A stretch of 37,726 nucleotides of DNA. Origin: Burkholderiaceae bacterium. Its GTDB lineage: Bacteria; Pseudomonadota; Gammaproteobacteria; Burkholderiales; Burkholderiaceae_C. This document shows positions 10,646-35,462 of the stretch, in pieces. The first letter of the stretch is position 1; the number at the start of each line of letters is the position of its first letter. The notes under the pieces were generated by a model, which was not told where the DNA came from, did not search any database, and worked only from the letters and a program-made list of their open reading frames with translations. The stretch covers positions 1-37,726 of the forward strand of contig DASURM010000171.1 in NCBI GenBank assembly GCA_036280035.1, written 5' to 3'. The translations under genes and the position numbers were made by a program.

Positions 10646-11931
10646 GCTGCCGCTGCCGCACCCTCTTTCTTGAAGAGGTCGCGGAACACCGGGTAGATCT
10701 GCGCGGCCTCGGTGGCCTTGCGCATCGCGAAGTGGGCGTGATCCTCGCCCAGTTGCGAGTACTCCTCCCACAGGTTCTGCTCCTCCTCGGCCACCTGCAC
10801 ATACGCGAAGTAGCGCACCAGCGGCAACAGCTTGTCGGCGAGCAATTCGCGACAGCGGCCCGAGTCGTGATGCCAGTTGTCGCCGTCGCTGGCCTGCGCG
10901 CCGTAGATGTTCCACTCGCCGGGCGAATAGCGCGCGCGGATGATCTCTTCCATCAGCACCAGTGCGCTCGACACCACGGTGCCGCCGGTTTCGCGGGCAT
11001 GGAAGAAGTTCTCCTCGTCGACTTCCTGCGCCTGCGTGTGGTGCCGGATGAAGACGAGTTCGATCTTGTCGTAGTGCCGAGTCAGGAACAAATACAGCAG
11101 GATGAAGAAGCGCTTGGCCAGGTCCTTGCGGGCCTCGTCCATCGAGCCCGACACGTCCATCAGGCAGAACATCACCGCCTTCGTGGTGGGCACCGGCACC
11201 TTGATGCGATTGCGGAACCGCAGATCGATCGGGTCGAGGTACGGAATGCGCTCGAGGCGCGCTCGCAGCATCTCGATCTGCTCTTCCAGCTCGTGGATCT
11301 CGCGCTCCTTGACCGCGTCGCTGCGGTCGCGTTGGCGCTTGAGCAGCGCCAGTTGCTCCTCGAGTTCGCGCAGTTCCTTGCGCCAGGTGGATCCGATCGC
11401 GATGCGTCGGCCGATCGCGCCGCGCATCGAGCGCACCACGTGCAGGTTGGTGGGCGTGCCGTCGGCGGTGAAGCCCGCTCGCTGGCTCTTCCACTCGGGT
11501 GTCTCGGCCAGTTGAGTGCGGATCAGGTGAGGCAGTGCCAGGTCTTCGAAGAAGACCTGCATGAACTCTTCCTTGCTGAGCGCGAAGGTGAAGTCGTCTT
11601 CGCCTTCGCCGGAGTCGCTGGCCTGGCCCTTGCCAGAGCCGCCGCCGGCGCCGCCCTTGGGCCGCTCGATGCGGTCGCCGCGCACGTAGTCCTTGTTGCC
11701 CGGGTGCACGACCTCGCGTACGCCGCCCTGGCCGTGGTGGAACACCGGCTCGGAGACGTCCTTCTTCGGGATTCGCACCTCTTCGCCGCGCTCGATGTCG
11801 CGGATGCCTCGCCCGTCGACCGCGCGCTTGACCGCCTCGCGGATCTGGTCCTTGTAGCGACGCAGGAACCGCTCGCGATTGCCGATCGACTTGTTCTTGC
11901 CGGCCAGCCTGCGGTCGATGATCTGGAGCAT
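10642..11931 (-). CDS. YeaH/YhbH-family protein (DUF444, UPF0229)
   Basis: The N-terminus MLQIIDRRLAGKNKSIGNRERFLRRYK and a vWA-like C-terminal part (VMFCLMDVSGSM) fit the family. It sits between PrkA and SpoVR genes, as in the conserved triad. Confidence 0.9.
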   Translation of the reverse strand: MLQIIDRRLAGKNKSIGNRERFLRRYKDQIREAVKRAVDGRGIRDIERGEEVRIPKKDVSEPVFHHGQGGVREVVHPGNKDYVRGDRIERPKGGAGGGSGKGQASDSGEGEDDFTFALSKEEFMQVFFEDLALPHLIRTQLAETPEWKSQRAGFTADGTPTNLHVVRSMRGAIGRRIAIGSTWRKELRELEEQLALLKRQRDRSDAVKEREIHELEEQIEMLRARLERIPYLDPIDLRFRNRIKVPVPTTKAVMFCLMDVSGSMDEARKDLAKRFFILLYLFLTRHYDKIELVFIRHHTQAQEVDEENFFHARETGGTVVSSALVLMEEIIRARYSPGEWNIYGAQASDGDNWHHDSGRCRELLADKLLPLVRYFAYVQVAEEEQNLWEEYSQLGEDHAHFAMRKATEAAQIYPVFRDLFKKEGAAAAA

Positions 11932-11958
11932 TCGGCGACCCTCGTCAGCGTCCTTTCG

Positions 11959-13881
11959 TCAGCTGCTCTTGCGCACGCGCAGATACCACTCGCACAGCAG
12001 GCGCACCTGCTTGCCGGTGTAGCCCTTGTCGATCATGCGGTTGACGAAGTCCTCGTGCTTCTTGGCCTCGTCGGCGCTGGCCTTGGCGTTGAAGCTGATC
12101 ACCGGCAGCAGTTCCTCCGTATTGGAGAACATCTTCTTCTCGATCACCGCGCGCAGCTTCTCGTAGCTCGTCCACACCGGGTTCTTGCCCTGGTTGTTGG
12201 CGCGCGCGCGCAGCACGAAGTTGACGATCTCGTTGCGGAAGTCCTTCGGATTGGCGATGCCGGCGGGCTTCTCGATCTTCTCCAACTCGGCGTTCAACGC
12301 GGCTCGGTCGAACACCTCGCCGGTGTCGGTGTCGCGGAACTCCTGGTCCTGGATCCAGTAATCGGCGTAGGTGACGTAGCGGTCGAAGATGTTCTGGCCG
12401 TACTCGCTGTAGCTCTCCAGGTAGGCGGTCTGGATCTCCTTGCCGATGAACTCGGCATAGCGCGGCGCCAGCTGCTCCTTGATGAAGCCGACGTACTTCT
12501 GCTCCATCTCCTGCGGAAACTGCTCGCGCTCGATCTGCTGCTCGAGCACGTACATCAGGTGCACCGGATTGGCCGCCACCTCCTGGCTGTCGAAGTTGAA
12601 GACCTTGGAGATGATCTTGTAGGCAAAGCGCGTCGAGATGCCGCTCATGCCTTCGTCGACACCGGCGTAGTCGCGGTACTCCTGGTAGCTCTTGGCGCGC
12701 GGGTCGGTGTCTTTCAGGTTCTCGCCGTCGTAGACCTGCATCTTGGAGAACAGCGACGAGTTCTCGGGCTCCTTCAACCGCGTCAGGATCGCGAACTGGC
12801 TCATCATCTTCAACGTGCCCGGGGCGCACTTGGCCTCGGCCAGCGACGAGTTGCGGATCAGCTTCTCGTAGATCTTGGTTTCTTCGGAGACGCGCAGGCA
12901 GTACGGCACCTTGACGATGTAGACGCGGTCGAGGAAGGCCTCGTTGTTCTTGTTGTTGCGGAAGCTCTTCCACTCGCTCTCGTTGCTATGCGCGAGGATG
13001 ATGCCGTCGAACGGGATGGCGCCGAAACCTTCGGTGCCCTTGAAGTTGCCCTCCTGCGTGGCCGTCAGCAGCGGGTGCAGCACCTTGATCGGCGCCTTGA
13101 ACATCTCGACGAACTCGAGCAGCCCCTGGTTGGCCAGGCACAGACCCCCGGCATAGCTGTAGGCGTCGGGGTCGTCCTGCGCGTAGGTCTCGAGCTTGCG
13201 GATGTCGACCTTCCCCACCAGCGAGGAGATGTCCTGGTTGTTCTCGTCGCCGGGCTCGGTCTTGCAGACGGCGATCTGCTTGAGCACCGACGGGTACCGC
13301 TTGACGACCCGAAACTTGCGGATGTCGCCGCCGTACTCCTCGAGCCGCTTGACCGCCCACGGCGACATCACCCGGTTGAGGTAGCGGCTCGGGATGCCGT
13401 ACTCCTTTTCCAGGATCGGGCCGTCCTCGGTGAAGTCGAACAGCCCGAGCGGCGACTCGTTCACCGGCGAGCCCTTGATCGCGTAGAAAGGCACGTGCTC
13501 CATCAACTGCTTCAGGCGTTCGGCGATCGAACTCTTGCCGCCACCGACCGGACCCAGCAGGTACAGCACCTGCTTCTTCTCCTCCAGGCCCTGCGCGGCG
13601 TGCCGGAAGTACGACACCACCTGCTCGATCGAGTCCTCCATGCCGTAGAACTCGGCGAAGGCGGGGTAGATCTTGATGACCTTGTTGGCGAAGATGCGCG
13701 AAAGGCGTGGGTCGTTGCGCGTGTCGACCATTTGCGGCTCGCCGATGGCCTTGAGCATGCGCTCGGCCGCAGTGGCATAGGCCAGCGGGTTGCGCTTGCA
13801 TTCAGCCAGGTATTCTTCGAGCGAGAGTTCCTCTTCTCGCGTGCGCTCGAAGCGGGCTGCAAAGTTGCTGATCACGTCCAT
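11959..13881 (-). CDS. PrkA-family serine protein kinase (YeaG-like)
   Basis: Walker A LLGPVGGGKSS and overall PrkA/YeaG architecture. The start at ATG 13879-13881 (MDVISNFAARF) is preceded by AAGGAGG. The 18-codon upstream extension lacks an SD. Confidence 0.9.
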   Translation of the reverse strand: MDVISNFAARFERTREEELSLEEYLAECKRNPLAYATAAERMLKAIGEPQMVDTRNDPRLSRIFANKVIKIYPAFAEFYGMEDSIEQVVSYFRHAAQGLEEKKQVLYLLGPVGGGKSSIAERLKQLMEHVPFYAIKGSPVNESPLGLFDFTEDGPILEKEYGIPSRYLNRVMSPWAVKRLEEYGGDIRKFRVVKRYPSVLKQIAVCKTEPGDENNQDISSLVGKVDIRKLETYAQDDPDAYSYAGGLCLANQGLLEFVEMFKAPIKVLHPLLTATQEGNFKGTEGFGAIPFDGIILAHSNESEWKSFRNNKNNEAFLDRVYIVKVPYCLRVSEETKIYEKLIRNSSLAEAKCAPGTLKMMSQFAILTRLKEPENSSLFSKMQVYDGENLKDTDPRAKSYQEYRDYAGVDEGMSGISTRFAYKIISKVFNFDSQEVAANPVHLMYVLEQQIEREQFPQEMEQKYVGFIKEQLAPRYAEFIGKEIQTAYLESYSEYGQNIFDRYVTYADYWIQDQEFRDTDTGEVFDRAALNAELEKIEKPAGIANPKDFRNEIVNFVLRARANNQGKNPVWTSYEKLRAVIEKKMFSNTEELLPVISFNAKASADEAKKHEDFVNRMIDKGYTGKQVRLLCEWYLRVRKSS

Positions 13882-14327
13882 GCGGACCTCCTTCATCGGA
13901 CGGATGCCCCGACACAACCTTGGTGCCGTCGACATCTGGGAAGTTCTGATGAAGTCCCGGCTGTACGGGCCCAGGCTCCATCAGAGCTTTCCGGTCTGCA
14001 ACGCTCGAGACCTCAGCCCCTCGCGTGTCTCAGCATAGCGATCCTGCTCGACCCGACGCCTCGAGTAAAGCCCGCACTTGTGCCCTGTTCGATTCGTACG
14101 TCATTCAGCGGTCATCGCGGCGTCGATCGGATGGTAGTGTCTTCAACGCAAGTGTGCGACCTACGGCTGACCCGACCGACTTCGTTGTGGGGCCCACTAT
14201 GCGCCGACTGCGCGGATGCTCAGAGGCGGGGCTCGTGGTCATCCTCTTGCAGAGGCATGAGCCGTGATGTAGCGCACGCGAGGTGTTGTAGCTGGCTCGA
14301 CAGGGCCCGGGGCAGAGGCCACCTCGT

Positions 14328-20578: not shown

Positions 20579-22738
20579 TCAATGGGCTTTCTGCGACGCA
20601 ACGACTCCGCCCACCGAACGCAGCTCATGCGAGACGTTGCCATCGGCGAGCACCACCACCCGATCGGCGCTGGCGATCGTTTCAGGACGGTGGGCGACGA
20701 TCACGCGCGTCAGCTTCAATTGGCGGACGGCCTGATTGACGAGACGCTCACGCTCGACATCGAGCGCGCTCGTCGCCTCATCGAGAAACAAAACGCGCGG
20801 CCGCTTGTAGAGCGCGCGGGCCAGCAGCACGCGCTGCTTCTGGCCTCCCGAGAGCGTGGATCCCATCTCGCCGATCAGCGTGTAGTACCCCATCGGCAAG
20901 GCTGCAATCTCCTCGTGCACTGCCGCCATGCGGGCGCAATCGACCACCCGCTCCATGTCGGGTCGCGGGTCGAAGAAGCTGATGTTGTCGGCAACCGCAC
21001 CTGCAAACAGGGGCTCGTCCTGCATCACTGTGCCGACCATCGCTCGCCATGTCGCCGAGCCCATCGTCTCGAGAGGTCGTCCGCCGATCAACACCTCGCC
21101 CTGCACGGGAGACAGGATGCCCAGCATCAGCTTGATCAGCGTGGTCTTGCCGCAACCCGACGGACCCACGATGGCGATCGATTCGCCCGGCTCGATGCAC
21201 AGGCTCACGTTGCGCAGCACGTCGCCCTCGCTGTCGGAGTAGCGAAAGCCCACGCCCCGCAGCTCGATGCGCGGTGCGGCGGCGTCGCGGTCACCCGACC
21301 GCGACTCGAGGGCCTCGGCGTGCGCTCTCTCCGGCTCGCTGAGCACGATGTCGGCCAGGCGCTCGCCCTGCACCTTGAGCATGCCGAGCTCGGCCCACTT
21401 GTCGATCAGCGCGCCGACGCGTTGCGAGAACTGCTCCTTGTAGGCAACGAACGCGAGCAACATGCCGACCGTCAGGTTCTGGTCCAGCACGAGCGATGCA
21501 CCGATCCAGATCACGAGCACGCGCTCCAATCCGAACAGGCCCCGGTTGGCAACCGCCAGCGTCACCTCGAGGCGGCGCACGACCATGTCGGCATTCATCG
21601 CATCGACCACCAGGTTCATGAAGCGCGAGCGCCGATCGGCCTCGGCCGCGAACAACTTGATCGCCATCACGCCGCGCAACGACTCGAGGAAATGGCTGGT
21701 CTTCTTCGCATCGTGCACCAGCGCTTCCTCCGTCGCGCGGCGCATCGGCGCGAACAGCGCCCAACGCAGCACTGCGTAGACGACGACGAACGCCAGCACC
21801 ACGGCGCTCAACAGCAGGCTGTACAGCGCCATCATCACCAGCGTCGTCACCACCAACGCGCCGTCGAGCAGCACCTCGAGGAAGCTGGTCGTCAGCGTCT
21901 TCTGGATCTGCTGCACGGCGAAGAAGCGCGACCAGATGTCGCCCATGTGTCGCCGCTCGAACCACGCCAGCGGCAGACGCAACAGGTGAGCGAACACGTT
22001 GCCCAGCCACTGCAGGTTGAGGGTGGCCGACAGGTGCAACACCGCCCACGAGCGGATTGCCGCCGCAGCCACCTGGATCGCCACCAGCAGCGCGAACCCG
22101 ATGCCCAGCGTCACCAGCAAGTCGCGATCGGCAGTGACCAGGACGTCGTCGACCACCCACTGCAGGTAGAACGGGCTCAGCAGCACGAAGAACTCGAGCA
22201 CCAGCGCCAGCGCAACGATCTGCCCCAGCGAGCGCCTGAGCCCGACCACCCGCCCCAAGAGCTGGCGCATCGTGATGCGCCGCTGCTCGTCGCGGCGCTC
22301 GAACCCCGCGTCGGGGGTGAGTTCCATCGCCGCGCCCGTGAAATGCCGCGAAAGCCGGGCCCACTTCACCCAGTGCGCGCCACGGGCAGGGTCGTGGATC
22401 AACACCGCGTCGCGGCGCACCTTGACCAGCACGACGAAGTGGTTGAAGTCCCAATGCAGGATCGCAGGCAGCGGCAACTGCTCGAGCTGCTCGGGCTCGG
22501 CACGCACCGCTCTCGTCTGCAGCTTCAACGCGCGCGCCATGGTGGCCAGGTCGGCCATCGTGGCACCCTTGAGCGACAGGTTGAAGCGCTGGCGCAACGC
22601 CGGCAGGTCGACGTGCAGGCCGTGCGAGGCCGCGACCATCGCCAGGCAGGCCAGCCCGCACTCGGCCGCCTCGTTCTGCAGGATCACCGGCGTCCCGGGG
22701 GCGCCGAAGCCGATGCGCAGCGATCGGGCGACGGTCAT
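20579..22738 (-). CDS. Peptidase-containing ABC transporter (PCAT): N-terminal C39 peptidase, TMD and NBD
   Basis: C39 triad candidates are Cys in QNEAAECGLACLAMV, His in WDFNHFVVL and Asp in LIHDPA. Walker A GPSGCGKTTL, signature LSGGQKQRVLLARAL and Walker B LFLDEATSALD are present. The architecture is CvaB/ComA/RaxB-like. Confidence 0.9.
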   Translation of the reverse strand: MTVARSLRIGFGAPGTPVILQNEAAECGLACLAMVAASHGLHVDLPALRQRFNLSLKGATMADLATMARALKLQTRAVRAEPEQLEQLPLPAILHWDFNHFVVLVKVRRDAVLIHDPARGAHWVKWARLSRHFTGAAMELTPDAGFERRDEQRRITMRQLLGRVVGLRRSLGQIVALALVLEFFVLLSPFYLQWVVDDVLVTADRDLLVTLGIGFALLVAIQVAAAAIRSWAVLHLSATLNLQWLGNVFAHLLRLPLAWFERRHMGDIWSRFFAVQQIQKTLTTSFLEVLLDGALVVTTLVMMALYSLLLSAVVLAFVVVYAVLRWALFAPMRRATEEALVHDAKKTSHFLESLRGVMAIKLFAAEADRRSRFMNLVVDAMNADMVVRRLEVTLAVANRGLFGLERVLVIWIGASLVLDQNLTVGMLLAFVAYKEQFSQRVGALIDKWAELGMLKVQGERLADIVLSEPERAHAEALESRSGDRDAAAPRIELRGVGFRYSDSEGDVLRNVSLCIEPGESIAIVGPSGCGKTTLIKLMLGILSPVQGEVLIGGRPLETMGSATWRAMVGTVMQDEPLFAGAVADNISFFDPRPDMERVVDCARMAAVHEEIAALPMGYYTLIGEMGSTLSGGQKQRVLLARALYKRPRVLFLDEATSALDVERERLVNQAVRQLKLTRVIVAHRPETIASADRVVVLADGNVSHELRSVGGVVASQKAH

Positions 22739-22748
22739 GCTCGCGGCC

Positions 22749-23999
22749 TCAGAGACGGCCGGCCACGCCCAGCACCGGTGCGAACAGCCACTCGACGAGG
22801 CGGCGCCGTTCGAGCATCACGTCGGCGTCGAGCTGCATGCCGGCTGCCAGCGGCTGCTCGCGGCCGTACGCCATCACCGATTGCCGCGCCAAGCTCACCG
22901 TCACCCGATACATCGGCTCGTCGGGTTTGACCGCCAGCGGCAACGCGGCCAGCTCGCCGGCTTGCAGCGGCGTGCTCGACACCCGAATCACCGAGCCGAC
23001 CTGGTGGCCGAACTTCTGGTACGGGAATGCGGCCACCCGCATCCGCACCGCCTGCTGCGGGCGGATGAAGCCGAGCGCGCTCGACGGGGCATACAGATGG
23101 GCCTGCAGCCGCGTGTCGGACGGCACCAGGCTGGCGAGCGCGACGTCCGGCGACACGGTTTGCCCGGGCTCGGCCAGCACCGCAGCCAACGTGCCATCCT
23201 GCGGCGCACGAACCAGCAGTTCATGCCTGGCTTCGTTCTCGGCCGACTCCTGGGCCAGCGCCTGCGCCGCGCGTTGCAGCTCGCCGGCGCGTGCCTGCTC
23301 CTGCAGCGGCAACTCGCGGCGCTGGCCTTCGAGCGCGGCGATCTCGCGCTGCAGCGTGTTGCGCTGGCGCTCCAGCGCGACGAGTTGCGCCCGCAGCGCC
23401 AGCACCTCCTCGCCCTTGGTGTTGACCTGGGCGCCCGACACGAAGCGCTCGTCGCGCAGCGACTCCAGCCGCGTCAGCGTCTGCTGTGCCAGCGCAAGTC
23501 GCTGGCGCTGCAGCTCGGTCTCGGTGCCGATCTGCGTCACCTCCTGGCGCAGCCCGGCCAGGCGCTGCGTCAGGGCGGCCTCCTGCTCGCGGCTCAGTCG
23601 CCGGCGCGCCTGCAGAGTCTCGTTCAGGCTCTCCTGGCGCGCGCGCAGGCTGCTTTGCACGCGTTGCTGCGCCGTGCCGTCACCCAGGTGCTGGTCGAGC
23701 GTCAGCACGAACAACACATCGCCGGCATGAACGGCTTGGCCTTGCTGGACGCGCCGCTCGGCCACGGTGGCCAGTTGCGGGGCTACCAGGCGGATCCAGC
23801 CGCGATCGGGCACCAGCACGCCGTGCACATGCGCCTTGCGGGTGTATTCACCCAACGCCAGCCAGGCGCCGACCGCCACCGCGGCGCCGACCAGCACGAT
23901 CACCAGCACCGACAGCGACACCGGGCGCACGAGGCGCACCTCGCCCATCCATTGCTGGCGCTGCGCCTCGAGGGCCTCGTGCCGGAACAACGGCTTCAT
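22749..23999 (-). CDS. HlyD-family secretion adaptor (CvaA/ComB/RaxA-like)
   Basis: N-terminus MKPLFRHEALEAQRQQWMGEV, one TM helix, a long coiled-coil (QRLAGLRQEV...LERQRNTLQREIAALEGQ) and a C-terminal beta-barrel region. It ends 10 nt upstream of the PCAT gene. Confidence 0.85.
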   Translation of the reverse strand: MKPLFRHEALEAQRQQWMGEVRLVRPVSLSVLVIVLVGAAVAVGAWLALGEYTRKAHVHGVLVPDRGWIRLVAPQLATVAERRVQQGQAVHAGDVLFVLTLDQHLGDGTAQQRVQSSLRARQESLNETLQARRRLSREQEAALTQRLAGLRQEVTQIGTETELQRQRLALAQQTLTRLESLRDERFVSGAQVNTKGEEVLALRAQLVALERQRNTLQREIAALEGQRRELPLQEQARAGELQRAAQALAQESAENEARHELLVRAPQDGTLAAVLAEPGQTVSPDVALASLVPSDTRLQAHLYAPSSALGFIRPQQAVRMRVAAFPYQKFGHQVGSVIRVSSTPLQAGELAALPLAVKPDEPMYRVTVSLARQSVMAYGREQPLAAGMQLDADVMLERRRLVEWLFAPVLGVAGRL

Positions 24000-24026
24000 G
24001 GCAAACGCGGCCCCACAAACGCAGAA

Positions 24027-24047
24027 CGGCCCGGTTGTACCGGGCCG
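24027..24047 (-). terminator. Hairpin between the peptide gene and the exporter genes (possible partial terminator)
   Basis: CGGCCCGG-ttgta-CCGGGCCG is a perfect 8-bp stem. On the minus strand it is followed by TTCTGCGTTTGT, which is only moderately U-rich. Confidence 0.35.
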
Positions 24048-24101
24048 CCGACTTGCCGGCCGGAGGGGGGAAGCGCCGGCGCGTCGAGAGAACTCGGGTT
24101 G

Positions 24102-24254
24102 CTACCAGCCGCCGCGCGGCAGGCCCTGGCCGCCGGCGACTTGCGCCAGTTGGCGGGGCTCAAGCGGCTGCAGGGTTTTCTTCGGCTCGATCGCGACGTC
24201 GCGCTTGCCGGCAAACAAGGTCTTGAGCAACGAGGTCTTGCGGGTTTGCTGCAT
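24102..24254 (-). CDS. Double-glycine-leader peptide precursor, 50 aa, predicted 8-aa core QGLPRGGW
   Basis: Sequence MQQTRKTSLLKTLFAGKRDVAIEPKKTLQPLEPRQLAQVAGG/QGLPRGGW. GGAGA lies 5 nt upstream of the ATG and third-position GC is high. The leader has GG at -2/-1, V at -4 and L at -7, -12 and -15. The gene sits directly upstream of HlyD and a C39-ABC gene. Confidence 0.6.
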   Translation of the reverse strand: MQQTRKTSLLKTLFAGKRDVAIEPKKTLQPLEPRQLAQVAGGQGLPRGGW

Positions 24255-24330
24255 GGTGGTCTCCGTTCGGGGTGTCGCGCCTGGCCCATGGCGCATGACG
24301 GAGATTGCAGCAGCGGATGCTCGACCATGA

Positions 24331-24350
24331 AACTGTCAACTCTTACAGGG
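24331..24350. promoter_or_regulatory. lux-box-like inverted repeat upstream of the peptide gene
   Basis: AACTGTCAACTCTTACAGGG has the form CTGT-N8-ACAG and matches the V. fischeri lux box ACCTGTAGGATCGTACAGGT at 14 of 20 positions. A TGCAAT -10-like hexamer (minus strand, 24304-24309) lies about 34 bp from the box centre, which would put the box near -43. Confidence 0.5.
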
Positions 24351-24392
24351 TGACAGCGGCGGCGAATGCGGGCCAAATGTTACGGGCTTGCG

Positions 24393-25103
24393 TCAGCGAA
24401 TCAGGCCCAGCCGCAGAGCCTTGAGTACCGCCTGATGCTTGTTGACGCTGCCGAGCTTGCGCATCGCGTTGTTCAGGTGCAGCACGGCGGTGCGCTCGGT
24501 GATGCCGAGGATCGACCCGACCTCCCAGGCCGTCTTGCCTTCCATCGTCCAGCGCAGCGCCTCCAGCTCGCGCGGCGTCAGCGACGGCCCGTCCTGGCCC
24601 GCGGCCGGCAGCAGCACCCGCAGCGCCGCGTCGAGCGCGTGCACCGCGAACAGCTGCAGGTCGGCCACCACCCGGGTCAGCTCGTGGCGGTCGCTCGGCA
24701 GCGCACGATCACGGTCGACGCCGAGCATGAAGTGTTTGCCCTCGGGCAGATGCAGCGCCATCGCGATGCCGGTCTGATAGCCGTAGCGCGCCTGCTCCTC
24801 CCACAGCTCGCCCTGCCCCTGCGAGGTGTAGGTGCCCTGATCCCAGATGATCGGCAGGCTCTGCCGCTTGCAATGCTGCATCACCGGATCGCGTTGCATG
24901 GCACGCGCGTCGTTGAAGGCACCGCGCCACTCCTGCGGGGTGTTGTCGACGACGACGAACTCGCTGCGCCCGATGCCATGGTCGATCACCGTCACCGCGG
25001 AGACCGTATCGAAGCCCAACGCGCGGCCGAAGCGGACAACCTCCTCGCGGAACTCCTCACGGTTCCTCGCCTGCAGCACCGATGAATAACCGCCTTGCAG
25101 CAT
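24393..25103 (-). CDS. LuxR-family regulator with an N-terminal autoinducer-binding domain (LuxR solo in this window)
   Basis: C-terminal GerE/LuxR HTH LTPRELEALRWTMEGKTAWEVGSILGITERTAVLHLNNAMRKLG. The N-terminal domain shows the TraR-type spacing W-x12-DP-x13-W (EWRGAFNDARAMQRDPVMQHCKRQSLPIIW). Confidence 0.9.
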   Translation of the reverse strand: MLQGGYSSVLQARNREEFREEVVRFGRALGFDTVSAVTVIDHGIGRSEFVVVDNTPQEWRGAFNDARAMQRDPVMQHCKRQSLPIIWDQGTYTSQGQGELWEEQARYGYQTGIAMALHLPEGKHFMLGVDRDRALPSDRHELTRVVADLQLFAVHALDAALRVLLPAAGQDGPSLTPRELEALRWTMEGKTAWEVGSILGITERTAVLHLNNAMRKLGSVNKHQAVLKALRLGLIR

Positions 25104-25140
25104 GTGATCGAGTGCGCACTAGGGCGCTGGGCGCGCGCCG

Positions 25141-25160
25141 ACCTGAAAGGTCTTACAGAT
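25141..25160. promoter_or_regulatory. Second lux-box-like inverted repeat in the luxR / ORF-25218 divergent region
   Basis: ACCTGAAAGGTCTTACAGAT has the form CTG-N10-CAG and matches the lux box at 15 of 20 positions. It shares the 8-mer TCTTACAG and 13 of 20 positions with the box at 24331-24350. Confidence 0.5.
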
Positions 25161-25217
25161 TTCAAACGATTGCCGGTTGCCGAACACTAGTCGACACGGC
25201 AAACAACGAGTCGCATC

Positions 25218-25616
25218 ATGCAAACCAAGACCCACGCCTGTCCCCCCTGGACCCTTCGTGCCTGGCCGCCTCTATTGTGGCAGTTTGACAAGCTGCAGCC
25301 GCTCAGGTTGCGGCACTTGGGCACGCGCGTCACGAACCCCGGCGACCAAGTCTCGCGCACCTCCGGCCAGACCATCTGGGCGGCGGCAGCCGCCGACGGC
25401 CAGGCCGGCATGGCCTGGGACTGGATCCAGTTGTCGGCCGGCGTGGTGGCGATGGCCGACCCGCTGTCGGTGGTCACCAATCTGCACCTGGTCAGCGCCG
25501 ACGGCGACGCACTGAGTCCGCTGGAGTCGCTGCGTCACCTCAATGAAGTCGTGCACACGCTGCGCTGGCAGAACGAAGTCGAGCGCGTGCTCGCGGTCAA
25601 TGCGCAGGCGGCGTAG
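25218..25616 (+). CDS. Hypothetical Trp-rich protein (132 aa), family not recognised
   Basis: Third-position GC stays high across the ORF, most strongly from about 25330. It has 8 Trp in 132 residues and no obvious signal peptide or TM helix. It is divergent from the luxR homologue. The start is uncertain. Confidence 0.5.
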   Translation: MQTKTHACPPWTLRAWPPLLWQFDKLQPLRLRHLGTRVTNPGDQVSRTSGQTIWAAAAADGQAGMAWDWIQLSAGVVAMADPLSVVTNLHLVSADGDALSPLESLRHLNEVVHTLRWQNEVERVLAVNAQAA

Positions 25617-25622
25617 CTGAAC

Positions 25623-26786
25623 TCAACGCGTCGCCGCCAGCCGCAGCCGGCGCGCGACGATGCCCAGACAGAGCGTCGTCCCTGCGACGGCCACCGCCAG
25701 CGGCACCAGCAGATCGGGTGTCGCGAAAGCGTCGCCGCGCAACGCGCGGCCCATCAACGTCACTTGCGCCAGCGCCGGCAGCCACAGGTGCCACGGCCGC
25801 TCGCCGCCGCCGTCGAACAGCGTCACCAGCGGCAGCACCGACACCAGCAGGATCACCACGGTGTTGCTCGCCTGGGCCTCCTTGAAGGTCTTGCAACCGA
25901 TGGCGATGGCCATCATCAGCGCCGACAGCATCGCCGCCAGCGGCAGCAGCAACGCCAGGAACAGGCCGGCCTCGCGCAGGCCGAATCGGAACAGCGCCGC
26001 CAGCGTGTCGCTGCGCATCAGGCTCTGCGCCGGCATGAAGCTGAGGCAACTCAACACGGCGATCAGCATGCCCACGCTGGCTACCGCGGCCCACTTGCCG
26101 ATGACCAGCGCCAGCGGCGACGCCGGGGTCGTCAGCAACGGCTCGAGCGAGCCGCGCTCGCGCTCGCCGGCGGTGGTATCGAGCGCCGCATTGAGTGCGC
26201 CGTACAGCACGGCCATCAGCACGAAGAACGGCAAGATGCCCGTCAGCTGCGCCGCACGAGCGCGCGGGTTCGCGAGATCGCGCTCCTCGATCTGCGCCGG
26301 CTGCAGCAGCGCCGGTGCAACGCCGCGATACACGAGCCGCTGCAACGCCAGCTCCTGGTTGAAGGCCAGCAGCGCGCGCTGCACCCGTCGCACGGAGGCG
26401 GCGGCGCGCGAGTTGGCGCTCGACGTCACCACCTCCAGCAGCGGACGATCACCGCGCGCCAGCGCGGCCTCGAAGTCCGGCGGCACCACCACCACCGGGT
26501 CGGCGAGCCGCCGCTCCACCAGCTGGCGCTCGTAGTCGGCCGGCGCCGGCTTGATCCGCAGGGTCTGACGTTCGAGGAAGTTGCGCAGGCTGGGTGCATG
26601 CTCGATGCCTGCGGCCACGATGTCGCGCGATTCGGCGCGTTCCTCGCTGTTCGCCACCAGCACCGACAGCCCGAACAACAGCACGGGCCCCATCAGCACC
26701 GACGACAGCACCACCGCCAGCAGCGTGCGTCGATCGCGCAACGCGTCGCGCAGCTCCTTGACGAACACGGTCCAGGCGTCGCTCAC
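25623..26786 (-). CDS. ABC-2 type transporter permease (NatB-like)
   Basis: N-terminal TM helix, a large extracytoplasmic loop, the hallmark TAGERERGSLEPLL, and a C-terminal bundle of five TM helices. GTG 26784-26786 overlaps the ATPase stop (GTGA). Confidence 0.85.
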   Translation of the reverse strand: MSDAWTVFVKELRDALRDRRTLLAVVLSSVLMGPVLLFGLSVLVANSEERAESRDIVAAGIEHAPSLRNFLERQTLRIKPAPADYERQLVERRLADPVVVVPPDFEAALARGDRPLLEVVTSSANSRAAASVRRVQRALLAFNQELALQRLVYRGVAPALLQPAQIEERDLANPRARAAQLTGILPFFVLMAVLYGALNAALDTTAGERERGSLEPLLTTPASPLALVIGKWAAVASVGMLIAVLSCLSFMPAQSLMRSDTLAALFRFGLREAGLFLALLLPLAAMLSALMMAIAIGCKTFKEAQASNTVVILLVSVLPLVTLFDGGGERPWHLWLPALAQVTLMGRALRGDAFATPDLLVPLAVAVAGTTLCLGIVARRLRLAATR

Positions 26787-27547
26787 TCGCCAGCCCTGGC
26801 TTCGTCGGCAAAGGCCAGGCTGACGAAGGCCTGCTCGAAGTCGTCGTGCCCGCTCGCCCGGCACAGCTCGCCGACGCTGCCCTCGGCCACCGCGCGCCCG
26901 TGCGCCATCACCACCACGTGATCGCACAGGCGCTGCACCTCCTGCATGATGTGCGTGCAGAACACGATGCACTTGCCGTGCTCGTCGCGCAGCCGGCGCA
27001 GGGCCTGGCGCAACCCGCGGATCGACTGCACGTCGAGCCCGTTGGTCGGCTCGTCGAGCACGATGTTCGGCGGGTCGTGCACGAGCGCGCGCGCCAGCGC
27101 GGTTTTCATGCGCTCGCCCTGGCTGAAGCCGACCGTGCGCCGGTCGAGCAGCGGCTCGAAGTCGAGCGTGCGCGCCAGCGCCAGCGCCCGCGCATCGGCA
27201 GCGTCGCGGGCGATGCCGTGCAGGTGCGCGTGGTAGACGATGTTCTCGCGCGCCGTCAGCCGCGGATACAGGCCGCGCGCATCGGACAGCACGCCCAGCC
27301 GCGCCAGCGCGTCGCGCGGCCGAGCGACCACGTCGATGCCATCGACCTCGATGCGGCCTTCGTCGGGCGGCAGCAACGCCGCCACCATGCGCAGCAGGGT
27401 CGTCTTGCCGGCACCGTTGGGGCCGAGCACCGCGGTGATGCGGCCATCGGCGGCCGAGAGCGTCACGCCCCGCACCGCGTCGACCACACGCCTGGCGCGC
27501 CCACGTCCCTGCACGAAGCGCTTGTGCAGTCGGTCCACCCGGATCAT
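26783..27547 (-). CDS. ABC transporter ATP-binding protein (NatA-like)
   Basis: Walker A GPNGAGKTTLL, signature FSQGERMKTALARAL and Walker B IVLDEPTNGLD. ATG 27545-27547 overlaps the upstream stop (ATGA). Confidence 0.9.
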   Translation of the reverse strand: MIRVDRLHKRFVQGRGRARRVVDAVRGVTLSAADGRITAVLGPNGAGKTTLLRMVAALLPPDEGRIEVDGIDVVARPRDALARLGVLSDARGLYPRLTARENIVYHAHLHGIARDAADARALALARTLDFEPLLDRRTVGFSQGERMKTALARALVHDPPNIVLDEPTNGLDVQSIRGLRQALRRLRDEHGKCIVFCTHIMQEVQRLCDHVVVMAHGRAVAEGSVGELCRASGHDDFEQAFVSLAFADEARAGE

Positions 27548-29010
27548 CGGGCCGACCCCGCGGCCTGGCCGAGCGGAACGAACAGACGAGGCCGCGGCAG
27601 CGCCTGAGCGCAGCTTGCGTCGACCTTCAGCGCAGCGTCGTCGTCGCGCGCCTCGATGAACCGTACCACCGCATCGCGCAGGCACGGCAATGCCATCACG
27701 CCATGGCCGGCGTTGGGCACCTCCGTGTGCCGAGCCTTCGGCCCCAGCGCGCGCGCGATCCGCTCACCGTGGCGCGGCGGCGTCGCCGGGTCCGCTGCGC
27801 CCGACAGCACCCAGGTCACCGCCGGCGCGGGTGGCGTGGTGTAGAAGCTCGCGGCCACGGCACCGCGCGGCCACGAGGCGCACGCCTGCTCGTACAGCCG
27901 TGCGAATGCGTCGCCGAACTGGGCGCCGGGGGCGCCGGGGGCCTGACCCAATCGCGGCACGTCTTCGGCGCACACCACCGAAAAGTGCATGCCGGTGTAC
28001 AGCGCCGCGCCCGGCCCCCTCATCGCCGAGGCCAGCCCCGTCAGCGCATCGAACCGGCCCGCCGCGGCATCGCCGATCGCCGCCGGCAGCACCGCCGCGA
28101 GCGCCGGCACGTACAGCGCCGAACGCACCATGCCCAGCACCTCGTCGCGCGTCAGTCGCACCGACTCGAGTCGGCCCGTCAGCGGGTCGGTCAACTCCAC
28201 CTGGCGCGGCAGCGCGTCGAGCACGCCTAGCCACAGCGCTCGCAGGCGCGGATGGCGGGCTCGACAGTCGACGTCGGCTGCACACCAGTCGAACAGGGCA
28301 TCGAGAGCGGCCTGGTTGTCGATCGAGAACGATGCCGGCAACACCATGTCGGCCGGCGCCACGCCGTCGAGCACGACCCGCCGCACCGCGCGCGGAAACA
28401 GTCGCATGTACTCCAGCGCTGCGCGCGTGCCGTACGACGCCCCCACGAGGTTGATGGTGGGCGCACCGAGTGCAGCGCGCACCGCCTCGACATCGGCCAT
28501 CGCGATCGACGTGGTGTAGCGGCGCAGGTCGCCGTAGGGCAGCTTCGTCAACTGCTCGCGGCACGAGGCCAGTTGCGCCAGCTGCCGCTGCGGGTCGAGC
28601 TGCCCGACCAGCGGGCGCAGCGCCTGGCGATCGCTCTCGCAGCGCAGCGGCGCGCTGCGGCCGGTACCCCGCTGATCGACGAACACCAGGTCGCGCCGAT
28701 TGTTCAGCCGCCCCAGCTGCGCGGCCACGGGGCCGGCGAGTTCGATCGCGCTCTGGCCCGGTCCGCCGGCGAAGAAGAACACCGCGTCCGCCAGCTTGTG
28801 CTGCGCCAGCGCAGGCAGCAGCGCGAAGTGCACGTCGATCTTCGTGCCGTCGGGCTGCGCCGGGTCGAGCACACGCCGCACGCTGCCGCACAGTGCGTCG
28901 TGGGTCACCCCCTCGAGCCGACACGGCGTCAGAGGGGCCGCCTGCGCGGCGGCCGCGAACGCCAGCCCGGTTAAGCCGACGGTCCAGCGCAAGCTCCACC
29001 GGGTCGTCAT
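27544..29010 (-). CDS. Secreted alpha/beta hydrolase (TAP-like / tripeptidyl-aminopeptidase-type)
   Basis: Signal peptide MTTRWSLRWTVGLTGLAFAAAAQA, then FFFAGGPGQSAIE, VDQRGTGRS, nucleophile elbow GASYG and C-terminal PNAGHGV. The upstream 295 codons of the ORF are a run-on. Confidence 0.85.
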   Translation of the reverse strand: MTTRWSLRWTVGLTGLAFAAAAQAAPLTPCRLEGVTHDALCGSVRRVLDPAQPDGTKIDVHFALLPALAQHKLADAVFFFAGGPGQSAIELAGPVAAQLGRLNNRRDLVFVDQRGTGRSAPLRCESDRQALRPLVGQLDPQRQLAQLASCREQLTKLPYGDLRRYTTSIAMADVEAVRAALGAPTINLVGASYGTRAALEYMRLFPRAVRRVVLDGVAPADMVLPASFSIDNQAALDALFDWCAADVDCRARHPRLRALWLGVLDALPRQVELTDPLTGRLESVRLTRDEVLGMVRSALYVPALAAVLPAAIGDAAAGRFDALTGLASAMRGPGAALYTGMHFSVVCAEDVPRLGQAPGAPGAQFGDAFARLYEQACASWPRGAVAASFYTTPPAPAVTWVLSGAADPATPPRHGERIARALGPKARHTEVPNAGHGVMALPCLRDAVVRFIEARDDDAALKVDASCAQALPRPRLFVPLGQAAGSAR

Positions 29011-29127
29011 CGCCGCGCATTGTCCACGGCTGACGCGGCGACGCGCGAGCATGCCCCGACGGCGCGCCGTGAATTCGGTCCGCGCTATGCTGCTTCGCAC
29101 CTTGCCACCCATCAGGAGATTCGACCG

Positions 29128-33020: not shown

Positions 33021-33680
33021 TCACCAGCGCTTGGGCAACGGCTTGCGCAGCACGATGCGCTCGCGGCTGGCCTCGATGTAGCCGCCGGCCGCCAGGTCTT
33101 GCAGGATGCGGTTGATCATGCTGCGCGACGCGCCCACCCGATCGGCGATCTTCTGCTGGCTGAGCGGCCCGGGCACCACGCGCACGCCATCTTCGTCGCG
33201 CGCCAGTTCGCCGAACAGCCGCGCGACGCGGCCGTAGACATCCATCGACACCAGCCCCTGCACGTTGCGGCTGAGTTGGCGCACGCGATCGATCAGGTGC
33301 TGGATCACGTGGAACGCCAGCGCCGGCTGCGCCGCCAGCGCCTGCTCGAACTCCGCGCGCGTGATCATCGTCAGCTTCGCCTTCGAGGTGGTCTGCACGG
33401 TGGCTGTGCGCGCCTGGCTGCCGAGCATCAGCTCACCGAAGTACTCGCCCGCGCCCAAGGTGTTCAGCTCGACTTCCTTGCCCTCCTCGTCGGACACGAA
33501 GACGCGCAGCGTGCCCTCGTGGATCAGGTACATCGACAGCGCCGGCTCGCCCTCGGTAACGACGATCGTGCCCTTCGCGTACGCCCGGGTGTGGCCAAGC
33601 GCCGCCAGCGCGCCGAGCAATTCCTCGGGCAGCGTGCTGGCCGTCGCGGCCGGGCCTGGCAAAGCTCCCACGGCGCGCAT
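33021..33680 (-). CDS. Crp/Fnr-family transcriptional regulator (cNMP-binding domain plus HTH)
   Basis: cNMP-binding motif GAGEYFGELMLGSQARTATV and C-terminal HTH SQQKIADRVGASRSMINRILQDL. Confidence 0.9.
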   Translation of the reverse strand: MRAVGALPGPAATASTLPEELLGALAALGHTRAYAKGTIVVTEGEPALSMYLIHEGTLRVFVSDEEGKEVELNTLGAGEYFGELMLGSQARTATVQTTSKAKLTMITRAEFEQALAAQPALAFHVIQHLIDRVRQLSRNVQGLVSMDVYGRVARLFGELARDEDGVRVVPGPLSQQKIADRVGASRSMINRILQDLAAGGYIEASRERIVLRKPLPKRW

Positions 33681-33710
33681 GATGCCGCATGCGCGGCGCC
33701 GCGCGCAGCC

Positions 33711-34832
33711 TCAAACGCCGTGTATTCGCATCGCCGCCACCGGCCGCTGGAAGCCTTTGAGCTGGATGTCGCCTCGCGGCTCGGTGTCGAAGCCGCCGCC
33801 GAGCGCCGCCACCACCCGCTGCGACACCAGCACCTCGCCGCCCGCGGCTTCGGCGCACAGCCGTGCCGCCAGGTTGGTCACGGTGCCGATCGCGCCGTAG
33901 TCGATGCGACCCTCGAACCCGATCGCCCCGATGGTGGCGAAGCCCATCGCGATGCCCACGCCCATGCTGAGCGCATAGCCGCGCCGCTGCCAGCCCTCGG
34001 CCAGTCGCGCCACCTCGGCCTGCATCCGCAACGCCATGCGCACCGCGCGCGGCGCCGCGTCGGGCATCGGCAGCGGGTCGTTGAAGAACACCATGATGCC
34101 GTCGCCGGTGAAGCGTTCGAGCGTGCCTTCGTGCTCGAGGATCAGCCGGCCCATCGCGGCGTGGTACTCGCGCAGCACACCCATCACCTCTTCGGGGTCG
34201 GCGGTCTCGGTGAACGCGGTGAAGCCGCGCAGGTCGAGAAACACCACGGTGATCTCGCGGCGGTGACTCTGCAGCGGGTCGTTGGTGTCGCCGCCGACGA
34301 TCGCCTGCGCGAGCTGCGGCGAGAAGAAGCGCTTCAACCGCCCCACCCGCTCGAGCTGCGCCACGCCGTCTGCCACCCGCTGCTCGAGCGTGCGGTTCCA
34401 CTGCGCCAGTTCGGCCTTCTGGCGCTGGATCTCGTCGTGAAAGGCCTTGATGCGCAGCAGCGAGCGCACCCGCGCCAGCAGCTCGGCCTGGTTGACCGGC
34501 TTGCTCAGGAAGTCGTCGGCGCCGGCCTCGATGCCTTTGACGCGCTCCTGGTCCGGGTCGAGCGCGGTCACCAGCACCACCGGCAGCATCGCGCTGCGCG
34601 CGTCGGCGCGGATCGCGCGGCATACCGAGTAGCCGTCGAGCCCCGGCATCATCACGTCGAGCAGCACCAGGTCGGGCGGCTCGGCGCCGATCGCCTGCAG
34701 CGCGGCTTGCCCCGACAGCGCCTTGCTGGTGCGGTAGCCCTTGGCCGCCAGCACGTCGGCCAGCAGACGGGCGTTCTTCTCGACGTCGTCGACCACCAGG
34801 ATGTGCGGGCCCGCCGGCCGCTCGGCGCTCAC
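33711..34832 (-). CDS. Response-regulator receiver fused to a class III adenylate/guanylate cyclase
   Basis: REC motifs ILVVDDVEKN and LVLLDVMMPGLDG. Cyclase motifs ITVVFLDLRGFTAF and ERFTGDGIMVFF. GTG 34830-34832 overlaps the upstream stop (GTGA). Confidence 0.9.
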   Translation of the reverse strand: MSAERPAGPHILVVDDVEKNARLLADVLAAKGYRTSKALSGQAALQAIGAEPPDLVLLDVMMPGLDGYSVCRAIRADARSAMLPVVLVTALDPDQERVKGIEAGADDFLSKPVNQAELLARVRSLLRIKAFHDEIQRQKAELAQWNRTLEQRVADGVAQLERVGRLKRFFSPQLAQAIVGGDTNDPLQSHRREITVVFLDLRGFTAFTETADPEEVMGVLREYHAAMGRLILEHEGTLERFTGDGIMVFFNDPLPMPDAAPRAVRMALRMQAEVARLAEGWQRRGYALSMGVGIAMGFATIGAIGFEGRIDYGAIGTVTNLAARLCAEAAGGEVLVSQRVVAALGGGFDTEPRGDIQLKGFQRPVAAMRIHGV

Positions 34833-35209
34833 TTGGCCCTTCCCTCGGTCAGCGCCTTGTTCACCGCGGCGAGAAACGGCTTGATCGAGATCGGCTTGGC
34901 GATGAAGCCGTCGAAGCCCGAGCGCACGATGCGCTGCTGCTCGTCTGGCATCACCGAGGCCGACACCGCGAGCACCGGCATCGCGTCGAGCGACGCGTCT
35001 TCGCGGATGCGCGCCAGCACCGTTGCGCCGTCGATGCCGGGCAACTGGATGTCCATCAGCACGAGGTCGGGTCGTGCGCTCAGCGCCAGCGCAAGACCCG
35101 CTTCGCCGGTGTCGGCTTCCAGCGTGTGGTGCCCGTGGTGCCGCAGCAGATCGCGCACCAGCTTCATGTTCTTCGCGTTGTCTTCGACGATCAAGATGGT
35201 CTTGGGCAT
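34829..35209 (-). CDS. Single-domain response regulator (CheY-like)
   Basis: MPKTILIVEDNAKNMKL, LVLMDIQLPGIDG and FIAKPI. GAGG lies 6 nt upstream of ATG 35207-35209. Confidence 0.9.
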   Translation of the reverse strand: MPKTILIVEDNAKNMKLVRDLLRHHGHHTLEADTGEAGLALALSARPDLVLMDIQLPGIDGATVLARIREDASLDAMPVLAVSASVMPDEQQRIVRSGFDGFIAKPISIKPFLAAVNKALTEGRAK

Positions 35210-35241
35210 TGAGGGCCTCGCTGGATCTGCGACGTCTGAGG

Positions 35242-35462
35242 TCACTCGATCACCTCGTTGGCGCGCAGCAGCAGCGAGCGCGGGATCGCGATACCCAGTT
35301 GGCGCTGGCTTCGGCACGCGGCCCCGCCATGTCGGCCGGCGGCGTGTTGCGCGCGAGGATCGCGATGCGCGGCAGCGCTCGCGCGGGCTGCGCGGCGACG
35401 CGCATCGCCGCCGTCGCCAACGCAGCGGCGGCGACGAAGACGGCGCTACGCCGGCGCGTCAC
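35242..35462 (-). pseudogene. Collapsed remnant of an ABC_sub_bind-type periplasmic binding-protein gene
   Basis: GTG 35460-35462 overlaps the kinase stop (GTGA). The ORF encodes a signal peptide plus PRIAILA (VTRRRSAVFVAAAALATAAMRVAAQPARALPRIAILA). About 20 codons later a +1 frame reads QLGIAIPRSLLLRANEVIE-stop, which is the usual C-terminus of that family. The roughly 250 central codons are missing. Confidence 0.4.

Follow-up and report, generated by a model that had tools for sequence, protein, structure and literature searches.

Gram-negative bacteria classically signal through LuxI/LuxR pairs with acyl-homoserine lactones (AHLs), and Gram-positive bacteria through ribosomal peptides that are sensed by kinases or RRNPP receptors; all ligands described for the LuxR-type receptor family have, to our knowledge, been small molecules rather than ribosomal peptides. 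We analysed a 37,726-nt stretch of DNA from a Burkholderiaceae bacterium (GenBank assembly GCA_036280035.1, contig DASURM010000171.1, positions 1 to 37,726 of the forward strand; hereafter the window), in which a gene of 50 codons plus stop (24102–24254, minus strand) for a predicted double-glycine (GG) precursor peptide is preceded directly by the gene of a LuxR-family regulator and followed immediately by those of an HlyD-type adaptor and a C39 peptidase-containing ABC transporter (PCAT), all on the same strand. Judged by sequence comparison, the locus belongs to an undescribed family, widespread among uncultured Burkholderiaceae, in which a LuxR-type receptor appears to co-evolve with a ribosomal P-x-x-x-W peptide. 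In the best explanation of these data the peptide, driven by a lux-type box and exported by the PCAT, is probably the cognate ligand of the adjoining LuxR. A preliminary description of the peptide gene had missed the cassette of LuxR and RsaM-like genes, the lux box and the receptor-peptide covariation, which are the main point of the present analysis.

Among described systems, the luxI-rsaM-luxR cassette resembles the locus in its regulator with Autoind_bind and GerE domains, in a divergent gene, here for a putative DUF4902/RsaM-like protein, and in CTG-N10-CAG boxes, which precede the 'signal' gene and also occur in the intergenic region of the regulator. It differs in that the locus has a ribosomal peptide gene in the synthase place and no LuxI gene (a search of the 37.7-kb window and of the sequence flanking related loci gave no LuxI-family synthase, PF00765), and in the LuxR pocket, where the equivalents of TraR Y53, W57 and Y61 are replaced or variable and one segment co-varies with the peptide; the regulator domains and the lux box of an AHL-type pair are present, LuxI adjacency and the full set of six pocket residues are not. 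In a review of RsaM a divergent rsaM-luxR solo arrangement ('type 6') is described from related genera, with no peptide or PCAT mentioned, and the divergent position of the RsaM-like and LuxR genes here matches this topology. The closest contextual parallel is offered by the plant-associated LuxR solos OryR, XccR and PipR, which share substituted pockets, an S33 alpha/beta-hydrolase and an ABC transporter with the locus, their neighbours being a proline iminopeptidase and ABC transporters of the peptide type (PMC10134790); PipR was, according to that source, first reported to respond to peptides (PMC10134790, citing Schaefer et al. 2016). These solos differ in their exogenous ligand (for PipR the ethanolamine derivative HEHEAA), their W57M/Y61W substitutions and an importer with a binding protein, and they have neither an endogenous precursor gene nor a lux-box-driven peptide.

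The GG pheromones and PCATs of Gram-positive bacteria (ComC/CSP-ComAB and BlpC-BlpAB, with PCAT1 and LahT as models) are similar in their GG leader with hydrophobic residues at -4, -7 and -12, the adjoining C39 exporter, rapid peptide diversification and autoinduced expression, the last of which is proposed here. In contrast to these, the host is Gram-negative, the adaptor is of the HlyD type, the product is shorter (an active unit of 5–8 residues), the regulator is a cytoplasmic LuxR and not a membrane histidine kinase, and leaderless sisters occur without PCAT. RRNPP signals (Phr, PapR, SHP, XIP) and cyanobacterial PatS/HetC are alike in their C-terminal active unit of 5–8 residues, some tiny leaderless precursors and a cytoplasmic transcription factor as receptor, a general likeness and not one of sequence; their receptors (TPR-type RRNPP proteins or HetR) are unrelated to LuxR. 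The Nostoc PCAT HetC has been linked to a pentapeptide morphogen system (PMC10986499). RaxX-RaxB/RaxA of Xanthomonas shares the Gram-negative host, export of a signalling peptide by a PCAT and membrane-fusion protein (MFP) and a GG leader of about 40 residues, but RaxX is a sulfated plant-hormone mimic of the 21-residue class that needs the sulfotransferase RaxST and has no LuxR partner; here, the core contains no Tyr, no sulfotransferase domain was found in the neighbours and the precursor has no sequence similarity to RaxX. In full-text searches no paper combining a LuxR solo with C39 or a precursor peptide was found, and neither was the motif.

All analyses were computational. About 150 related loci were compared, all from uncultured Burkholderiaceae and sharing one syntenic neighbourhood; no cultured carrier of the cassette was found, 12 of 12 genome matches and all others being metagenome-assembled genomes (MAGs) or metagenome contigs. 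Scanning of a metagenome collection for box-N19-GCTGNTG (box form CCTGTAAGANNTGACA) gave at least 120 loci, and the LuxR homologue search took in matches of at least 75% identity. The peptide, LuxR and covariation counts given below were made among the matches listed from the box/promoter scan together with other related loci.

The LuxR-family regulator (24393–25103, minus strand; 236 aa) contains Autoind_bind (PF03472, 1.1e-26) and GerE (PF00196, 1.6e-14) domains, has LasR, RhlR and QscR as closest solved relatives and was found upstream of the peptide in 83 of the 83 loci having sequence there. Six conserved pocket residues have been described for such receptors, W57, Y61, D70, P71, W85 and G113 (TraR numbering; PMC10134790). 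In 98 non-redundant LuxR orthologues the equivalents of D70, P71, W85 and G113 were invariant, while the W57 position was occupied by Tyr (50), Phe (36) or Trp (8), the Y61 position by Phe (66) or Tyr (16) and the Y53 position by Thr or Ala; the canonical six-residue AHL pocket is not retained in the family. Residues 57–69 formed the most variable stretch of the whole protein.

Changes in peptide and receptor were mapped by parsimony on a neighbour-joining (NJ) tree of LuxR from which residues 53–71 had been left out, and coincidences were compared with a branch-length-weighted null. Among 61 non-redundant loci with Arg or Lys at the first position after the motif Pro (P+1), a small residue (Ala, Ser or Pro) stood at LuxR position 62 in 16/16 Arg loci and Val, Thr or Ile in 42/45 Lys loci (overall concordance 58/61); LuxR62 changed 11 times and P+1 between Arg and Lys 10 times, and eight of these changes coincided on the same branches (null 1.95, P<5e-5). 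At LuxR59, the equivalent of TraR W57, Phe was found only with Lys (34/34) and Arg went with Trp or Tyr (six coincident changes, P=0.016). For P+3, Gly was accompanied by a bulky residue at LuxR69 (M/W/Y/A/I), and Thr, Asn or Tyr by Gly69 (84/93 loci concordant, seven coincident changes, P=0.003); Lys at P+2 occurred with Glu64 in 14/15 loci. Unbiased scans of every LuxR column ranked columns 62 and 69 first for their respective peptide positions. The trends were physically complementary (two pairs by size, one by charge) and are obeyed by the pair of the window itself (Arg with A62 and W59, Gly with M69). By alignment the co-varying columns correspond to LasR W60, H63, Y64, D65 and A70 in the LasR 60–70 pocket segment, of which W60, Y64 and A70 contact the ligand in LasR structures. 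Block recombination is an unlikely source of the signal, since the co-varying sites are separated by most of luxR and this intervening sequence was the basis of the tree. Covariation was visible only per residue pair and with about 100 loci; a one-to-one match between the whole LuxR segment 55–71 and the whole core was not seen by eye in the first 15 loci and was rejected.

The promoter region contains a lux-type box (box 1, CCTGTAAGAGTTGACAGT, 24332–24349, minus strand), an 18-nt CTG-N10-CAG dyad between luxR and the peptide gene that is invariant even in the most diverged loci, where its flanks vary, and that is unique in the window at up to three mismatches. It agrees at 12/18 positions with the V. 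fischeri lux box. An invariant GCTGCTG.AAT is located 17 nt beyond box 1 and includes a -10-like hexamer TGCAAT (24304–24309, minus strand; TGAAAT in most relatives); if this is the -10 element, transcription would start near 24297 and box 1, centred at about -43.5 as is typical of LuxR-activated promoters, would overlap the -35 region. A box-1 peptide open reading frame (ORF) was present in every locus listed from the box/promoter scan, a small ORF with a ribosome-binding site (RBS) starting 85–113 nt after the box start. A second lux-type box (box 2, CTGTAAGACCTTTCAG, 25143–25158, minus strand), with the same left half as box 1, is conserved in the divergent intergenic region of luxR and the rsaM-like gene, and CTGTAAGA was found in the window only twice, at boxes 1 and 2.

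The transcript is predicted to be flanked by hairpins. Two conserved hairpins follow the stop codon (24014–24086, minus strand), hairpin 1 (24049–24086) with an invariant C-rich loop GCUUCCCCCCUCCG and hairpin 2 (24026–24048) with a 9-bp GC stem, after which a U-rich tract extends to 24014; there are 19 pairs, three of them, in the first hairpin, with compensatory changes, and terminator-like hairpins are found at the same place in five other loci (L009, L011, L013, L029, L030). Together they resemble a terminator or attenuator, and the peptide gene would thus be a compact, terminator-bounded unit ahead of the exporter genes. Near the inferred 5' end a hairpin GCGCC-N8-GGCGC (24277–24294, minus strand) was weakly supported with hand-specified pairing, at 89% of cells paired and two pairs with compensatory change; hairpins of differing sequence occupy the same place in L009, L013, L026 and L028, and RNAalifold returned no structure for the 5' UTR from an alignment that was misaligned there. 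Rfam gave no family in 23800–25700. The loop of hairpin 1 holds CUCCG, complementary to CGGAG of the peptide RBS (24260–24268, minus strand) about 190 nt upstream, and a 5'-3' pairing of loop and RBS that controls translation or stability is conceivable.

The peptides themselves are conserved at their C-terminus. A profile search of 1.84 billion representative proteins yielded only about 20 relatives, three of them with 3–4 tandem cores behind one GG leader (for example ...VAGG-SGLPRGGWQ-SASGLPRGGWQ-SASGLPRGGWQ-AEATSGLPRGGW). The loci encoded 107 distinct peptides with extremely diverse leaders, of which 101 had P-x-x-x-W at or near the C-terminus (variants being PKGGW, PRGGW, PNGGW, PHKGW, PKKYW, PTGGW and PAAGW), 75 ended with the Trp and 15 contained two or three core copies (2–4 tandem cores in P0016, P0027, P0031 and others). 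The stretch from GG to Pro is free in length (0 to 8 or more residues) and sequence, and the conserved unit is a C-terminal P-[RK]-x-x-W, mostly preceded by L, S, T, A or G; cores have 8 residues here and 7–14 in single-core relatives, the shortest predicted product being LPKGGWQ after the GG. Leaderless mini-ORFs (MQAFASSCAVMLPKSGW and MTAITTQADTTTLLPRAGW) lie behind the same box and promoter in L029 (an Aquabacterium sp. MAG) and L030, both reached via homologues of the RsaM-like protein, with the same hydrolase/ABC/ABC-2/RsaM-like/LuxR block next to gidA and without HlyD or PCAT. In sister lineages the leaderless peptides of 17–24 aa share the promoter, the C-terminal motif and the LuxR, RsaM-like, hydrolase and ABC-2 partners. 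Because the GG-Pro spacer is free, and because some relatives have cores in tandem and some are leaderless, the active unit probably has 5–6 residues; the functional unit would thus be a C-terminal penta- or hexapeptide and not the particular octapeptide, with further trimming possible. Of two other maturation schemes, cleavage at the second GG (PRGG/W) was rejected, as this GG is not conserved in the core (PRNGW, PKSGW, PKGTW, PKKYW), and strict tripeptide trimming by the TAP-like hydrolase was not supported, the spacer having 3 or 6 residues in many peptides and 2, 4, 5, 7 or 8 elsewhere.

The precursor ORF is read on the minus strand from ATG at 24254–24252 to TAG at 24104–24102 and translates to MQQTRKTSLLKTLFAGKRDVAIEPKKTLQPLEPRQLAQVAGGQGLPRGGW, with a leader of residues 1–42 (24129–24254) ending in QLAQVAGG and a core of residues 43–50, QGLPRGGW (24105–24128), whose PRGGW is encoded by the last five codons. 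As the preliminary description had stated, a Shine-Dalgarno sequence GGAGA is found five nt before the ATG (24260–24264, minus strand; AACGGAGACC is kept in orthologues) and third-position GC is that of the host: GC by codon position is 0.67/0.47/0.88 in the peptide gene and 0.68/0.44/0.89 in the PCAT gene, which in this 68%-GC window is the signature of real genes. Of the leader pattern that it had proposed, the GG at -1/-2, V at -4, L at -7 and L at -12 were borne out and position -15 was not conserved; in 27 homologues G41, G42, V39 and L36 are invariant and L31 nearly so (leader end LEPRQLAQVAGG), the diverse metagenomic leaders have the GG-leader pattern too, and the precursor has the GG end and hydrophobic -4, -7 and -12 residues that define such leaders (GG/GA/GS end). 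The window has 547 stop-to-stop segments of 30 aa or more, among which this ORF alone has a GG-leader motif 4–20 residues before its stop, compared with 0.43 such segments on average anywhere in random windows; this is more than chance, and the ORF is positioned directly upstream of the HlyD-PCAT pair. Shared GG leader and core in orthologues, the absence of which would have spoken against the gene, were found in 13 close homologues (50–54 aa), which retain the start, the QLxxVAGG leader end and LP(R/K)GGW. Across 12 orthologous loci start, frame and stop are retained, with 914/804/1425 differences at codon positions 1/2/3 and a mean pS of 0.49 against a pN of 0.25. On this comparative evidence the 50-codon ORF is a real gene that has been conserved, and its predicted product is a small exported peptide.

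Our own sum of residue masses, 869.45 Da, agrees with the mass given earlier for the octapeptide. QGLPRGGW stands as the predicted primary cleavage product only, the predicted mature form being QGLPRGGW or a trimmed (L)PRGGW, and what is conserved is the C-terminal unit described above. Pyroglutamate formation, which had been suggested for the N-terminal Gln, is not a family feature, as this Gln is not conserved. The expectation that annotation would miss so small a gene did not hold, since the exact protein is present in NCBI nr and orthologues are annotated as 'hypothetical protein'; annotation pipelines have not overlooked it. A 64-aa form from an in-frame ATG at 24296 was rejected, this ATG being not conserved and situated where transcription is inferred to start. 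Residues 1–20 of the leader (MQQTRKTSFLKTLFxGKR; 24195–24254, minus strand) are conserved within the clade as strongly as the GG region and are absent in other branches of the family, which makes them a clade-specific feature. Frameshifts in the peptide core were seen in L019 (6001–6160) and L023 (6001–6160), two nanopore long-read (MFD) MAGs; neighbouring genes are fragmented too, for which reason these are most likely assembly errors, probably at homopolymers, and tiny genes of this kind are readily broken in nanopore assemblies.

The exporter consists of an HlyD/AprE-type membrane-fusion (adaptor) protein (22749–23999, minus strand; 416 aa) and the PCAT with C39, transmembrane and nucleotide-binding domains (20579–22738, minus strand; 719 aa). 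Its Peptidase_C39 domain (Pfam, 1.5e-36) has LahT150 (6mpz, 4e-21) as closest solved relative; the transporter aligns to PCAT1 over its full length, and the domain retains the catalytic Gln21/Cys27/His100/Asp116 (alignment to PCAT1 and LahT150). HlyD/PCAT genes were located downstream of GG-leader peptides in 53/58 loci, compared with 0/11 for leaderless peptides (up to 25 aa). GG forms go with HlyD/PCAT and leaderless forms never do, so the GG leader and PCAT/HlyD would be a clade-specific export module whose sister lineages are leaderless, and by its sequence the precursor is a genuine double-glycine precursor adjoining its exporter.

In the mechanism that we propose, LuxR would bind box 1, the conservation of which is observed, and activate the promoter about 43 nt downstream, from which a short RNA of the 50-codon gene, bordered by hairpins, would be made, part of the transcription reading through into hlyD-PCAT. 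The C39 domain would cut after Gly41-Gly42, as predicted from the leader motif, the catalytic residues and the co-occurrence of leader and transporter, and PCAT/HlyD, presumably with an unlinked TolC, would export QGLPRGGW. The C-terminal (L)P-[R/K]-x-x-W would be the active unit, and the conserved secreted S33 hydrolase might, speculatively, trim the peptide from its N-terminus. The peptide, or a derivative retaining the P+1 to P+3 side chains, may be recognised in the LuxR ligand pocket, as the covariation suggests; its sensing would close a positive-feedback loop (autoinduction), which box 2 and the RsaM-like protein would modulate. The peptide gene would thus occupy the place of the LuxI synthase of classical circuits and be the signal arm of a LuxR-type cassette. 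That the locus encodes a LuxR-controlled, PCAT-processed secreted peptide is highly probable, and a role of the peptide, or of a close derivative, as LuxR ligand is modestly favoured. The chances seem evenly balanced that this is an unrecognised Gram-negative quorum-sensing architecture, that is, an AHL-receptor-type LuxR retuned to a ribosomal P-x-x-x-W peptide, with the peptide gene replacing luxI under a lux box, receptor pocket and peptide diversifying together into many specificity types, and export by GG/PCAT or another route.

Several points weigh against LuxR as receptor of the peptide. Gene linkage is in part inherited synteny, because all loci come from uncultured Burkholderiaceae and one neighbourhood next to gidA. 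A charged hexapeptide would need an importer to reach a cytoplasmic LuxR and none was identified, the conserved ABC-2 system looking like an exporter. Since the receptor keeps D70, W85 and its general AHL-type fold, an AHL-like or other small ligand is conceivable. Covariation tells of co-evolution and not of where or when the partners meet, and LuxR could recognise the unexported precursor. There are exceptions at position 62 (L016, L072, L148) and at position 69 (nine tips), and five GG-leader loci are without adjacent HlyD/PCAT; the tree is a simple one of a single protein, and the pocket mapping rests on sequence alignment to LasR.

The alternative that survives best, which we consider unlikely yet worth weighing, is that LuxR is a solo sensing an AHL or other small molecule (made elsewhere or by neighbours) and that the peptide is its output, as an effector, a public good or a signal to a different receptor. 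The invariant D70, P71, W85 and G113 of the AHL pocket, the classical CTG-N10-CAG type of the lux box and the want of an importer agree with it, AHL-eavesdropping LuxR solos are well known, and rsaM-luxR solo pairs have been described in related genera. However, the complementary covariation of three core side chains with the LuxR pocket segment, on independent branches, is left unexplained by a mere output, the canonical W57 and Y53 are not kept, and the peptide gene is the only constant target of box 1 and persists where the exporter is absent.

The peptide could also be the scaffold of a ribosomally synthesised and post-translationally modified peptide (RiPP), changed by unlinked enzymes (at Trp or Pro, or by cyclisation) into an active product that is possibly still the LuxR ligand; this we regard as improbable. 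The invariance of Pro and Trp, their fixed spacing and the multi-core precursors are features typical of RiPPs, the long conserved N-terminal segment of the leader could serve as a recognition sequence, and a conserved secreted hydrolase is always present. On the other hand, Pfam scans of the window neighbours and the gene tables of related loci contained no peptide-modifying enzyme with the precursor, and no radical-SAM, YcaO, LanM, P450, prenyltransferase or similar gene was found in the window or the conserved block; the N-terminal leader motif is missing from other branches of the family, and the frequent free C-terminal Trp (75/107) argues against protease-type head-to-tail cyclisation. 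A streptide-like Lys-Trp crosslink was rejected for the same lack of a radical-SAM gene and for the replacement of Lys by Arg, Asn, His or Thr.

Very improbable is a tiny microcin- or bacteriocin-like toxin with the ABC-2 transporter and the hydrolase as self-immunity. Class II microcins are exported by way of a GG leader, PCAT and MFP, immunity is often conferred by ABC-2 exporters (the ATPase here being weakly similar to lantibiotic-protection ABC proteins) and bacteriocins diversify fast as well, but cores of 7–14 residues with a conserved unit of five are far below any class II microcin and have no Gly-rich or hydrophobic body, leaderless 17-aa forms exist without exporter, and covariation with a transcription factor would be unexpected for a toxin. 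A product of tens of residues from a precursor of about 60–90 aa with an immunity gene, as in class II microcins, is not what the locus encodes, and its operon has no small immunity-like gene. A signalling rather than bacteriocin role, for which the preliminary description had argued, fits all comparative evidence. That the ORF is untranslated and the region only the 5' leader of the hlyD-PCAT operon is next to inconceivable, given the conserved start, frame, stop and RBS, the third-position excess with pN below pS, a C-terminal motif kept across very different nucleotide sequences and leader types, and the terminator after the ORF.

If LuxR is indeed the receptor, a LuxR-type protein with a genetically encoded peptide signal would bridge the Gram-negative and Gram-positive kinds of signalling, supply a ligand class for the orphan 'LuxR solos with RsaM' already noted in Burkholderiales and make a receptor-ligand specificity code readable from sequence (R/K with residue 62, G/T with residue 69, K with E64). 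The cassette is abundant in soil, rhizosphere and freshwater metagenomes (at least 120 loci), and synthesis of such short peptides is feasible, which makes the hypothesis open to direct test. Even conservatively, the loci would represent a new, widespread family of LuxR-controlled secreted mini-peptides.

The remaining genes of the cassette lie beyond luxR. In every locus with sufficient flanking sequence the eight-gene block is intact, whereas its outer surroundings differ. The divergent gene at 25218–25616 (plus strand) encodes a putative, distant RsaM-like (DUF4902) protein of 132 aa that was found beyond LuxR in 58/61 loci. It scored 24.5 bits with DUF4902 (PF16245; cut-off 25), which 9/14 orthologues matched, and its orthologues are named 'DUF4902 domain-containing protein' by NCBI; the only PDB match of its profile was B. 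cenocepacia RsaM (4o2h, E 0.023), hhalign gave a probability of 37%, and phmmer of the protein against PDB gave nothing. An ABC-2 permease (25623–26786) and an ABC ATPase (26783–27547; together 25623–27547, minus strand) are constant companions of the cassette, even in lineages without PCAT; the permease resembles the N-terminal half of ABC_perm_CPBP proteins. The secreted alpha/beta-hydrolase (27544–29013, minus strand, with approximate start codon), of the Hip1/TAP-like type (S33), has a signal-peptide-like N-terminus and a GASYG nucleophile elbow, with the M. tuberculosis serine protease Hip1 as nearest solved relative. The bond in GroEL2 that Hip1 reportedly cleaves is Arg-Gly; as (R/K)-G occurs in the peptide core, the Hip1-like hydrolase might mature or inactivate the signal. 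In the four-tandem-core lineage (L009, 1–2964) an Opp/Dpp-type importer (permeases and a double ATPase) adjoins the hydrolase end of the block and could be an uptake route or a coincidence.

GG-leader peptides without adjacent HlyD/PCAT were seen in L054, L071, L087, L041 and L034 (e.g. ...LRLISGGTDAPNKGW), the exporter being either elsewhere or lost; in L054 the 4 kb up to gidA hold only an opposite-strand GGDEF/dCache sensor and a TctC gene. In L013 (1289–1521) a GG-leader peptide gene (…QVVGGTVDTPRGVW) is followed directly by a terminator and gidA, again without HlyD/PCAT. Seven-codon ORFs, MKPTGTW and MTPRGTW, follow the main GG peptide in L057 (about 270 nt past the box) and L067; they end in P-x-G-T-W, have no obvious RBS and may be relics or minimal extra peptide genes. 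In L056 the region about 470–700 nt past the first box contains a truncated HlyD fragment and, after it, a further lux-type box (CCTGTAAGAGTTGCCAGT) with promoter, hairpin and RBS; this second module encodes a GG peptide of its own (...VSGGDGQSPHGTW), the box-peptide module being duplicated in tandem. L137 carries a degenerate second box (CCTGTAAGACCTGCCAGT). Among the unrelated neighbours in the window are a GAF/HAMP histidine kinase, two receiver proteins (one fused to an adenylate/guanylate cyclase) and a Crp-family regulator at 33021–37711 (minus strand), and a PrkA/DUF444 (yeaG-yeaH-like) pair at 10642–13935 (minus strand).

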